From Escherichia coli (lineage in GTDB: Bacteria; Pseudomonadota; Gammaproteobacteria; Enterobacterales; Enterobacteriaceae), in the NCBI RefSeq assembly GCF_001677475.2, contig NZ_CP015229.1: a stretch of DNA of 64,000 nt. One strand, given 5' to 3'. Positions 35,493-38,548 of this stretch are shown here, in pieces. Each line of letters opens with the position of its first letter. Position 1 is the first letter of the stretch. Both the position numbers and the translations under genes were made by a program. The notes beneath the pieces are model-generated. The model worked only from the letters and a program-made list of their open reading frames with translations. It was not told the DNA's origin and ran no database searches.

Positions 35493-37643
35493 TTAGTGGT
35501 GCGAAGAGATCTTCACGCCGCCTTCCGGGATTGGAACGTACGGCGTTTCTTTGTCAGTACGTTTGTCGCTGTTACGCACCTTCAGCCAGGTTTTGAAACC
35601 GTAGAAGATGATGCTGTACACCACAATCAGGAACAGAATACTCAGGCCTGCGTTGGTGTAGTTGTTCACAACGATGTGGTTCATGTTGGCAATCTGCTGC
35701 GCCGTCAGGTCAGTACCGTTAGCAATCTTCTCTTTGTACTGGCTTGCCATGTAGAAGAAGCCTTCCATCTGCGGGTTGGTGCTGAACAGTTTCAGACCCA
35801 GCGCCCAGGTGGTGCAGATAAGCAGCCATACCGCCGGAACAACAGTTACCCAGATGTATTGGGTGCGCTTCATCTTAATCAGCACAACGGTGCCCAGAAC
35901 CAGCGCTACGGCTGCCAGCATCTGGTTGGAGATACCGAACAGCGGCCACAGGCTCTTAACGCCGCCCAGCGGATCGACCACGCCCTGATACAGCAGGTAG
36001 CCCCACAGACCCACACAGCCCGCTGTACCGATGATACCGGCAACCAGAGAGTCGGTTTTTTTCAGGAACGGGATGAAGTTACCCAGCAGGTCTTGCAGCA
36101 TAAAGCGGCCAGAACGGGTACCGGCATCCAGCGCGGTCAGGATGAACAGGGCTTCGAACAGGATACCGAAGTGATACCAGAAGCCCATGTCAGCCATCGG
36201 CAGCACTTTGTGGAATACATGAGCGATACCTACCGCCAGCGTCGGCGCACCACCTGCACGGTTCAGGACAGAAGGCTCACCAATGTCTTTCGCGGTTTGC
36301 AGGATCTGCTCTGGCGAAATCACGAAGCCCCAGGAGCTGACAGTCGCCGCCGCGTGTGCGGTAACGTCTTTCAGCTGCGCCATGATGATTGGCGCGTTCT
36401 CGCCACCCATTTCATGCAGGTTAGGCATGGTGATGCCGAGGCCAGCAGGCGGGGTGTTCATCGCGAAGTAAAGACCCGGTTCGATGATGGACGCAGCAAC
36501 CAGCGCCATAATCGCCACGAAGGACTCCATCAGCATTGCGCCGTAGCCGATGAAACGCGCATCGGTTTCGTTAGCCAGCAGTTTCGGCGTCGTACCGGAA
36601 GAGATCAGCGCGTGGAAGCCAGATACCGCACCACAGGCGATGGTGATGAACAGGAACGGGAACAGAGCGCCTTTCCACAGCGGGCCAGTACCATCAATGT
36701 ACTGAGTCATCGCAGGCATTTTCAGTTCCGGGTTCAGCACCACGATACCCAGCGCCAGGCCGACGATAACGCCGATTTTCAGGAAGGTTGCCAGATAGTC
36801 GCGCGGTGCGAGGATCAGCCACACCGGCAGCAGTGCGGAAACAAACGCATAGCCAATCAGCGCGAAGGTAATGGTGGTGTCTTTAAAGGTCAGTGCCGGA
36901 CCCCAGTACGGATCGTGAGCAATCACGCCACCGAAGTAGATAGAGGCAACCAGCAGCACGATACCAATGACAGAGACTTCACCTACACGCCCCGGACGAA
37001 TAAAGCGCATGTAGATACCCATAAACAGCGCAATCGGTACGGTTGAGCAAACGGTGAAGACACCCCACGGACTTTCGGCCAGGGCTTTAACCACAATCAG
37101 CGCCAGGACGGCAAGGATGATGATCATGATTAAGAAACAGCCAAACAGCGCGATAGTCCCCGGTACTGGTCCCATCTCTTCTTTGATCATCTCACCGAGA
37201 GATGCGCCGTTACGGCGAGAGGAGATAAACAGCACCATAAAGTCCTGTACCGCACCGGCCAGCACTACCCCCGCCAGCAGCCACAGCGTGCCAGGCAGGT
37301 AGCCCATCTGCGCGGCGAGCACCGGACCAACCAGCGGACCGGCACCGGCGATAGCGGCGAAGTGGTGACCAAACAACACGTAACGGTTGGTCGGAACGTA
37401 GTTCAGACCGTCGTTGTTAATAACCGCAGGCGTCGCGCGCGTGGGGTCGAGTTTCATCACCTTCTGGGCGATGTACAGACTGTAGTAGCGATACGCCACC
37501 AGATACACCGACACAGAGGCGACCACGATCCACAGGGCGCTGACGTGCTCCCCCCGACGTAATGCAACTACCGCGAGGCAGAATGCACCGATGATTCCGA
37601 GAATCACCCAGGGTATGTGCTTGAATAGTTTTTTCGTATCCAT
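35493..37643 (-). CDS. btsT: Pyruvate/H+ symporter BtsT (CstA family)
   Basis: Translation from ATG 37643, [43 protein letters not shown]...; large CstA-type polytopic transporter. Confidence 0.9.
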
Positions 37644-37922
37644 AGTAAAACCTGGCATTTTACTCGTCGTCTTTTGGCTTACAGGTGCGACAGCTGCATT
37701 TGTTCACCTCTGTCACTTACTGTTGTAAGCTCCCGGGGATTCACTCACTTGCTGCCTTCCTGCAAACCAAAATCCATTGAGTAATTTGTTAATCATAGGC
37801 CGAAGCCGTTCTAGGTTTGCGTTGCGTTTGAGGAGGTAAATTGACCGCTATCCTGCAGTGATGTTGCCAGAGTTACGCGCGCGTAAAGTAAGGTAAATAA
37901 CTGAGTGGTTATTTTAGGGACG

Positions 37923-37950
37923 TAAGCGGTCAGGAATGGCGGTGAGCGGT
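37923..37950 (-). promoter_or_regulatory. BtsR (YehT/LytTR) direct-repeat operator in the btsT promoter
   Basis: On the btsT strand: ACCGCTCA-N12-ACCGCTTA, two perfect matches to the ACC(G/A)CT(C/T)A repeat reported for YehT binding; about 280 nt upstream of the btsT ATG. Confidence 0.6.
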
Positions 37951-38002
37951 TGGGCAAGAATTATTCATCGGGTGGATATGTGATTGAGATCACAATAAAA
38001 AT

Positions 38003-38030
38003 GCCCCTTCGACGAATACGTGAAGGGGCT
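38003..38030 (-). terminator. Intrinsic terminator after hpaC
   Basis: gccccttc-loop-gaaggggc hairpin, followed on the minus strand by ATTTTTATT. Confidence 0.7.
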
Positions 38031-38035
38031 GGAGC

Positions 38036-38548
38036 TTAAATCGCAGCTTCCATTTCCAGCATCACCGGATGGAAACGGCGTTTAAAGTAGATAAGTCCGT
38101 GACCTTCTGCACTGAGGATGATGTTTTTAATCTCCACCAGATACACCAGATGTGTGCCAATTGCCTGCACATCGCGGATCTCACCTTCAAGACTGGCCAG
38201 CGAACCTTTCAGCACCGGCTGCGCCAGCGGACCTTTTTGCCAGCATGAGAGGCTAAAACGCTCTTCCATCGCCATGCCTGTCATGCCCGCGAAGTGGCGT
38301 GCCATCAGTTCCTGCTCATGGTTGAGGACGTTGACGCACAACTTGCCGTTGCCCTGAAAAACCGGGTTCATCGCACTGTTGGCGTTAATGCACACCATCA
38401 GCGACGGTGGTGTATCCGTGACCGAGCAGACAGCCGTTGCCGTAATCCCGCATTGTCCGGCGTCGCCCTCGGTGGTGATAATATTTACCGCTGCCGACAG
38501 GCTGGCCATCGCGTCACGAAAGCGCAGGCGTTGTTCATCTAATTGCAT
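38036..38548 (-). CDS. hpaC: 4-hydroxyphenylacetate 3-monooxygenase, flavin reductase component
   Basis: 170-aa product MQLDEQRLRFRDAMASLSAAVNIITTEG... from ATG 38548 with GGAGG SD. Confidence 0.9.
   Translation of the reverse strand: MQLDEQRLRFRDAMASLSAAVNIITTEGDAGQCGITATAVCSVTDTPPSLMVCINANSAMNPVFQGNGKLCVNVLNHEQELMARHFAGMTGMAMEERFSLSCWQKGPLAQPVLKGSLASLEGEIRDVQAIGTHLVYLVEIKNIILSAEGHGLIYFKRRFHPVMLEMEAAI

Follow-up and report, generated by a model that had tools for sequence, protein, structure and literature searches.

A probable third BtsR box and a strain-variable ERIC insertion upstream of btsT in Escherichia coli

Introduction

In the 64,000-nucleotide stretch of Escherichia coli DNA analysed here (the window), a direct repeat that resembles the recognition site of the response regulator BtsR (YehT) lies on the strand of btsT, several hundred nucleotides from the start codon. 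A sequence-only reading had described it as a perfect BtsR-type repeat far upstream of the gene and had taken its position to imply a long 5' untranslated region or an additional promoter element. The locus therefore raises two questions: how the repeat relates to the BtsR operator that is already known for this gene, and why it stands at such a distance from the coding sequence.

Kraxenberger and co-workers are said to have described, in 2012, a YehT site made of two directly repeated copies of ACC[G/A]CT[C/T]A with 13 bp between them. As a rule, LytTR regulators recognise a pair of repeats, direct or inverted, each 9-11 nt long, that lie 11-13 nt apart and near a promoter (PMC4847170). The gene, also named yjiY, is in addition under cAMP/CRP control (PMC5431176), and control of btsT by both CRP and CsrA is described in the literature.

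Methods

A BtsT protein scan of species-representative genomes yielded 80 loci. The genera covered are Escherichia, Salmonella, Citrobacter, Klebsiella, Raoultella, Kluyvera, Enterobacter, Kosakonia, Lelliottia, Pluralibacter, Trabulsiella, Pantoea, Erwinia, Mixta and Rahnella. With the window and K-12 added, 79 btsT upstream regions, all from the Enterobacterales, were long enough for analysis.

Results

Three boxes in one control region

The features of the locus are listed in Table 1. RefSeq places the btsT start at the same position in E. coli genomes with 98-99% identity to the window in this region. Upstream of btsT and on the same strand are hpaC, hpaB and hpaA, and the hpaC frame ends at 38036. 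The hpaC terminator, a G+C-rich hairpin (-19.1 kcal/mol, z = -4.7) with a U-run after it, lies immediately next to the CRP site of btsT and marks the border between the hpa operon and the control region of btsT. E. coli has at least three haplotypes here, and the upstream neighbour differs among them: it is hpaC in the window, tsr in K-12 (L001) and a hypothetical gene in O157:H7 (L083). Downstream of box M1, the sequence is nearly identical in these three. This pattern hints at a boundary, of a recombination event or of an island, within the btsT control region.

Table 1. Positions of features in and around the btsT control region, in window coordinates. Positions relative to the promoter are predictions.
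Feature	Position	Strand	Description
btsT (yjiY) coding sequence	35493..37643	minus	716 aa; the regulated gene; RefSeq 'pyruvate/proton symporter BtsT'
ERIC (IRU) element	37661..37784	minus	123-124 nt; 3' end 17 nt before the btsT ATG
Predicted transcription start (A, +/-2 nt)	37854	minus	predicted from the -10-like element
Extended -10-like element, TGgCAACAT	37861..37869	minus	candidate core promoter, from conservation; no good -35
Box M2, ACCACTCA	37902..37909	minus	exact consensus match; predicted -55..-48
Box M1, ACCGCTTA	37923..37930	minus	exact consensus match; predicted -76..-69
Box M0, ACCGCTCA	37943..37950	minus	exact consensus match; predicted -96..-89
CRP-like palindrome, TGTGATCTCAATCACA	37979..37994		both half-sites match the consensus TGTGA-N6-TCACA
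hpaC intrinsic terminator	37995..38029	minus	stem GCCCCTTCACG...CGAAGGGGC, then AUUUUUAUU

At 37950-37923 on the minus strand, which is the btsT strand, the sequence reads ACCGCTCA-CCGCCATTCCTG-ACCGCTTA with a 12-bp spacer, exactly as had been noted. Both copies, M0 and M1, match ACC[G/A]CT[C/T]A, and their assignment to the YehT/BtsR recognition motif holds. The repeat is perfect with respect to this degenerate consensus but not as a pair of identical copies, as M0 has a C and M1 a T at position 7; the two 8-mers are otherwise the same. Both boxes exist, but they are not the whole of the array. A third box, M2, had been overlooked. It is separated from M1 by 13 bp, and the start-to-start distances along the array are 20 and 21 bp. 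Counted from the first base of the btsT ATG (37643), the proximal end of M1 is at 280 nt and the distal end of M0 at 307 nt, in agreement with the earlier placement of the repeat in the btsT control region about 280 nt from the start codon.

The boxes have the dimensions of a LytTR-type operator, with 8 nt each (9 nt with a conserved purine at -1) and spacers of 12 and 13 bp. They lie upstream of the btsT/yjiY orthologue and on its strand, and the last of them ends 35 nt before the -10-like hexamer. Single matches to the consensus occur 12 times in the 64-kb window, against an expectation of 6.15, and three of the 12 are grouped on one strand in the btsT upstream region. At the single-site density, chance would yield ~6e-4 pairs and ~6e-8 triples per window, so the three-box cluster is real and not a product of chance.

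The K-12 oligonucleotide 'yjiY YehT bs' (Behr et al. 2016, PMC4847170) has the sequence CCTTTGCCGCTCAACCGCAAAACTGACCGCTTACATCCCTAAAATAACCACTCAGTTA and contains three box positions, GCCGCTCA-N12-ACCGCTTA-N13-ACCACTCA. The direct repeat with a 13-bp spacer is ACCGCTTA-N13-ACCACTCA, which is found in the window at 37930-37902 and is identical to the K-12 site. The degeneracy of the consensus at position 4 (G/A) and position 7 (C/T) is exactly what ACCGCTTA and ACCACTCA yield when they are combined. From the 13-bp spacer and the composition of the oligonucleotide, it follows that the published pair is M1-M2. The M0-M1 pair, with its 12-bp spacer, has only M1 in common with it. The match to the reported repeat that had been claimed for M0-M1 is thus correct for the motif and incorrect for the pair.

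K-12 and the window share the gene, the motif and identical M1 and M2 boxes, and from M1 through the predicted promoter they are the same except for two substitutions. They differ in the M0 position, which is GCCGCTCA in K-12 (one mismatch, G for A at position 1) and a perfect ACCGCTCA in the window. Their haplotypes also differ in the spacer between M0 and M1 and in the 28 nt between M0 and the CRP site, the upstream gene of K-12 is tsr rather than hpaC, and K-12 lacks the ERIC insertion that is present in the leader of the window. BtsR binding and BtsS/BtsR-dependent, pyruvate-induced transcription have been published for K-12, in which M1-M2 is identical (PMC4847170, PMC5431176, PMC10653868). 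The repeat in the window is part of this already known BtsR (YehT) operator of btsT.

Persistence of the distal box across species

The best-fitting three-box array with a period of 19-22 bp has three or fewer mismatches in total in all 79 upstream regions, a count over related species that are not each independent evidence. M1 is the most frequently perfect box (69 of 79), followed by M2 (58 of 79) and M0 (55 of 79); in a further 23 species M0 has a single mismatch. The period between M0 and M1 is 20 bp in 74 of the 79 regions. For M1 and M2, 54 regions have a period of 20 bp and the other 25 one of 21 bp. Per position, M0 carries 1.63 bits, M1 1.79 and M2 1.66. In the flanks, the value falls to 0.33 over the 28 nt 5' of M0, to 0.49 in the M0-M1 spacer and to 0.62 in the 12 nt that precede M2. 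One Pantoea locus (L073) contains four in-phase boxes.

Within E. coli, the haplotypes of the window, O157:H7 and K-12 have hardly any sequence in common from the CRP site to M1, yet the CRP site and the M0 box stay at the same positions in all three. The M0 of the window and of O157:H7 has no mismatch, and that of K-12 and E. albertii reads GCCGCTCA. M0 thus keeps both its sequence and its phase, across species and across E. coli haplotypes, while its flanks diverge; for this reason it is regarded as a constrained site. It is probably a third BtsR box.

A different explanation is that only the published M1-M2 pair is functional. M0 would then be a relic or a chance look-alike, and the M0-M1 repeat would have no meaning as a unit. 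This agrees with the general organisation of LytTR sites, which are normally pairs, and with the reported two repeats and 13-bp spacer, which the K-12 oligonucleotide fits. The K-12 promoter is moreover fully inducible despite its imperfect M0, GCCGCTCA (PMC5431176, PMC10653868). Since K-12 activates well with an imperfect copy, M0 is not essential. The explanation is not congruent with the conservation of M0, which matches that of M2 (1.63 vs 1.66 bits; 55 vs 58 perfect copies), between flanks that are near random and at a period that is kept in 74 of 79 regions. It also has to accommodate the persistence of M0 in E. coli haplotypes with replaced surroundings and the Pantoea locus with its four boxes in phase. 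A site without function at M0 is, on this evidence, rather unlikely.

The six-base flank immediately upstream of M2, at 37910-37915 (minus strand), is AAAATA in E. coli and CATAYA in many genera, where it reaches up to 1.4 bits. M2 may be longer than the box as defined, or composite.

Promoter, ERIC insertion and distance to the gene

In 65 of the 79 species, a CRP-like site that matches the half-sites at 9 or more of 10 positions is found at a fixed distance of 44 nt upstream of M0. With its perfect half-sites and an offset from M0 that is fixed in most species, the palindrome is a putative CRP site. Its centre is ~132.5 nt upstream of the predicted transcription start. This is unusually far for an activator, and either the start estimate or the mode of CRP action may not be simple.

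The sequence TGnCAnnAT is present 30-32 nt downstream of M2 in 72 of the 79 species, with CAAGAT, CATGAT, CACGAT, CAACAT and others as hexamers. It belongs to a conserved block downstream of M2, aTTTACC..aCTTTACgcgcgcg..tcTGGCAagATc, in which the -10-like part is TctGgCa..At. The combination of an extended -10 and a poor -35 would be typical of an activator-dependent promoter. As the start at 37854 is itself a prediction, the promoter-relative positions of the boxes and of the CRP site are all predictions as well. An experimental btsT start site was found neither in the Cappable-seq and Kim et al. 2012 supplements nor by full-text searches. A consensus scan of 37500-38150 called no sigma-70-like promoter on either strand; the same scan also missed the hpaC terminator. 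Two further candidates were rejected. TTTACC-N16-TAACTC, directly after M2, has a -10 position that is not conserved across genera, and CTGGCA, taken as a -35, has no acceptable -10 at 16-18 nt.

The predicted leader is ~211 nt in the window and ~88 nt in K-12, where the corresponding start would be at ~4591367 (NC_000913.3). In most species, predicted leaders are 56-97 nt; lengths of 210-211 nt are found only in the four ERIC carriers, and one further locus has 156 nt. The long 5' untranslated region that had been proposed is therefore predicted here too, with the ERIC element as part of it.

In an alignment with K-12, the window contains a clean 123-nt block (37661-37783) that K-12 lacks, with near identity on both sides (from M1 into the leader, and from the ribosome-binding site onward). 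The block includes GTGAATCCCCGGGAGCTTACA, which matches the reverse complement of the ERIC1R primer at 20 of 21 positions and is followed by AGTAAGTGAC of ERIC2, with a match to ERIC2 of ~17/22 by eye. ERICs are 127-bp imperfect palindromes, and the block folds into a long imperfect hairpin (-49.4 kcal/mol, z = -6.5). An Rfam search of the region matched no known leader RNA family; it returned a full-length but sub-threshold V_AS5 match at 37663-37784 that coincides with the block. The block is thus identified as an ERIC (IRU) element: a palindrome with the central primer core, present in some strains and absent from others at an otherwise conserved intergenic site. Like known elements of this kind, it has the core GTGAATCCCCnGGAGCTTACA...AGTAAGTGAC, is intergenic but located in a transcribed leader, and is polymorphic among strains. 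Compared with them, the window copy has 123-124 nt and arms somewhat diverged from the primer consensus, and there is nothing unusual about it.

Of 5426 complete E. coli genomes, 2062 (38%) carry the ERIC element at the btsT locus. In virtually the same number (2060), hpaC is the upstream neighbour, and these nearly equal counts point to a single haplotype in which the ERIC element and the upstream hpa operon are tightly linked. The element is likewise found at btsT in Escherichia sp. E1V33 and E. albertii, which carry it; K-12, O157:H7 and Escherichia sp. MOD1-EC7003 do not. The insertion is an ordinary strain polymorphism.

When the ERIC element is excluded, the boxes are at ~-184/-164/-143 from the ATG, equal to their positions in K-12 and within ~60 nt of those in most other genera. 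The distance of ~280 nt is therefore due to the 123-nt insertion in the leader and not to an additional promoter. The description 'far upstream' is misleading for this reason: 123 of the 280 nt are ERIC sequence, and the boxes are otherwise placed as in K-12. The suggested additional promoter element is not borne out either, with a conserved -10-like element 30-32 nt after M2 and no sigma-70-like promoter within the insertion.

It could still be supposed that the boxes lie far upstream of the true promoter and that btsT is driven by a second one, for example on the inserted DNA. The 280-307 nt between boxes and ATG would fit this, and promoter-like sequences are possible within repeat elements. 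The extra length, however, is exactly that of the 123-nt ERIC insertion, and between M0 and the site of the insertion the window agrees with K-12 at 97-100% of positions, the extended -10-like element included. No sigma-70-like promoter was called in the region on either strand, and the same arrangement is found in 38% of E. coli genomes. A second promoter of this kind is very improbable. Transcription of btsT from a sigma-54 promoter, TGGCAA-N5-CTGCA at 37869-37854 (consensus -24/-12 TGGCAC-N5-TTGCA), is scarcely credible and is judged a coincidence, because the correctly spaced GG and GC dinucleotides of the window are a resemblance in the window only, the -12 GC and with it GG-N10-GC being absent from K-12 (TACA), Salmonella, Citrobacter and Klebsiella, while the conserved part TGnCAnnAT reads better as an extended -10 and BtsR, a LytTR regulator, belongs to a family not known to have an AAA+ activator domain.

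Discussion

The arrangement that we consider likely, with good confidence, is a three-box operator with M1-M2 as its core, an extended -10 promoter near 37854 and a leader lengthened by the ERIC element. When pyruvate is sensed, BtsS phosphorylates BtsR (PMC5431176, PMC10653868). BtsR, a LytTR-type regulator, activates btsT through this operator, in which the boxes are in phase, with about two helical turns per box. At the core pair M1-M2 (~-76 to -48), phosphorylated BtsR would recruit RNA polymerase to the weak extended -10 promoter. M0 is one period upstream and on the same helix face; it could hold a third protomer or add cooperative stabilisation, or it could allow an alternative M0-M1 register. 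Such cooperativity would be analogous to the sequential cooperative occupancy described for YpdB. The CRP site 44 nt upstream of M0 would impose catabolite control. The transcript would carry the 88-nt ancestral leader and the ERIC palindrome, the latter placed between the ancestral leader and the ribosome-binding site.

A broader proposal is held only tentatively, and we would not quite put it at even chances. It states that, in most of the sampled Enterobacterales, BtsR acts on three boxes in phase rather than on the two-repeat site described for K-12, and that M0 may tune the threshold, amplitude or pulse shape of pyruvate-induced btsT expression by cooperative binding of a third BtsR molecule. 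If M0 does tune the response, natural E. coli lineages would differ in their pyruvate-induced btsT expression. The ERIC hairpin, which abuts the ribosome-binding site, may be a second, post-transcriptional layer of strain variation. Only a few bases separate the end of the hairpin from the AGG of the ribosome-binding site, and in the predicted fold the ribosome-binding region is largely outside it.

Among other LytTR systems, the closest comparison is the YpdB (PyrR) operator at yhjX, which belongs to the sister system in E. coli. It also consists of direct repeats with a period of ~21 bp upstream of a transporter gene, and it differs in its motif (GGCATTTCAT), its 11-bp spacer and its regulator (PMC4847170). 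Binding of YpdB at yhjX is sequential and cooperative and has been described by an 'AB-BA' model (PMC4847170). The operators of AgrA, ComE, PlnC and VirR likewise contain direct repeats of 9-11 nt that are 11-13 nt apart and upstream of an activator-dependent promoter (PMC4847170). These are described as pairs, whereas three tandem, in-phase boxes are found at btsT. AlgR has three sites at algD, but they are widely dispersed (PMC4064291) and those of btsT are tandem. In the literature searched, no test of a three-site model was found for the BtsR or the YpdB system.

At ~20 bp upstream of site A, the K-12 yhjX oligonucleotide (PMC4847170) reads GTCATTCATT, a third copy of the box in degenerate form. 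The three-box layout may be shared by YpdB/yhjX.

The operator itself is already known, and a conserved third box is a modest refinement of it rather than a new kind of system. A description of the conserved third box and of the fixed CRP-M0 spacing was not found in a search that covered literature other than the text of Kraxenberger et al. 2012. The comparative data argue for three boxes, of which the distal one is weakened in K-12, and this matters for models that describe LytTR binding quantitatively, such as 'AB-BA'. In more than one third of E. coli genomes, a structured ERIC element lies between the btsT promoter and the ribosome-binding site, and reporter constructs and conclusions that are based on K-12 may not transfer directly to these strains.

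Three minor observations concern the leader. In Citrobacter portucalensis (L014), the stretch from M2 to the ATG is 257 nt and contains a ~125-nt insertion, which is a different and more canonical ERIC (…GGGAATCCTCAGGAGCTTACAAAAGTAAGTGACTGGGGTGAGCG…) at practically the same spot as in the window; the related C. braakii (L016) is without it. These positions suggest that the TA-rich sequence ahead of the ribosome-binding site is a hot spot for insertion, or else that the polymorphism is old. An in-frame ATG at 37656-37658 (minus strand), also present in K-12, is five codons 5' of the annotated btsT start (ATGCCAGGTTTTACTATG); an AGG spaced for ribosome binding is found at the annotated, downstream ATG. 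The ancestral part of the leader contains a small hairpin with a UUCG loop, GGCTTCGGCC, at 37798-37807 (minus strand), which is present in 36 of the 79 species. In Salmonella-like loci, this hairpin reads AGCTTCGGCT, with both sides of the stem changed.
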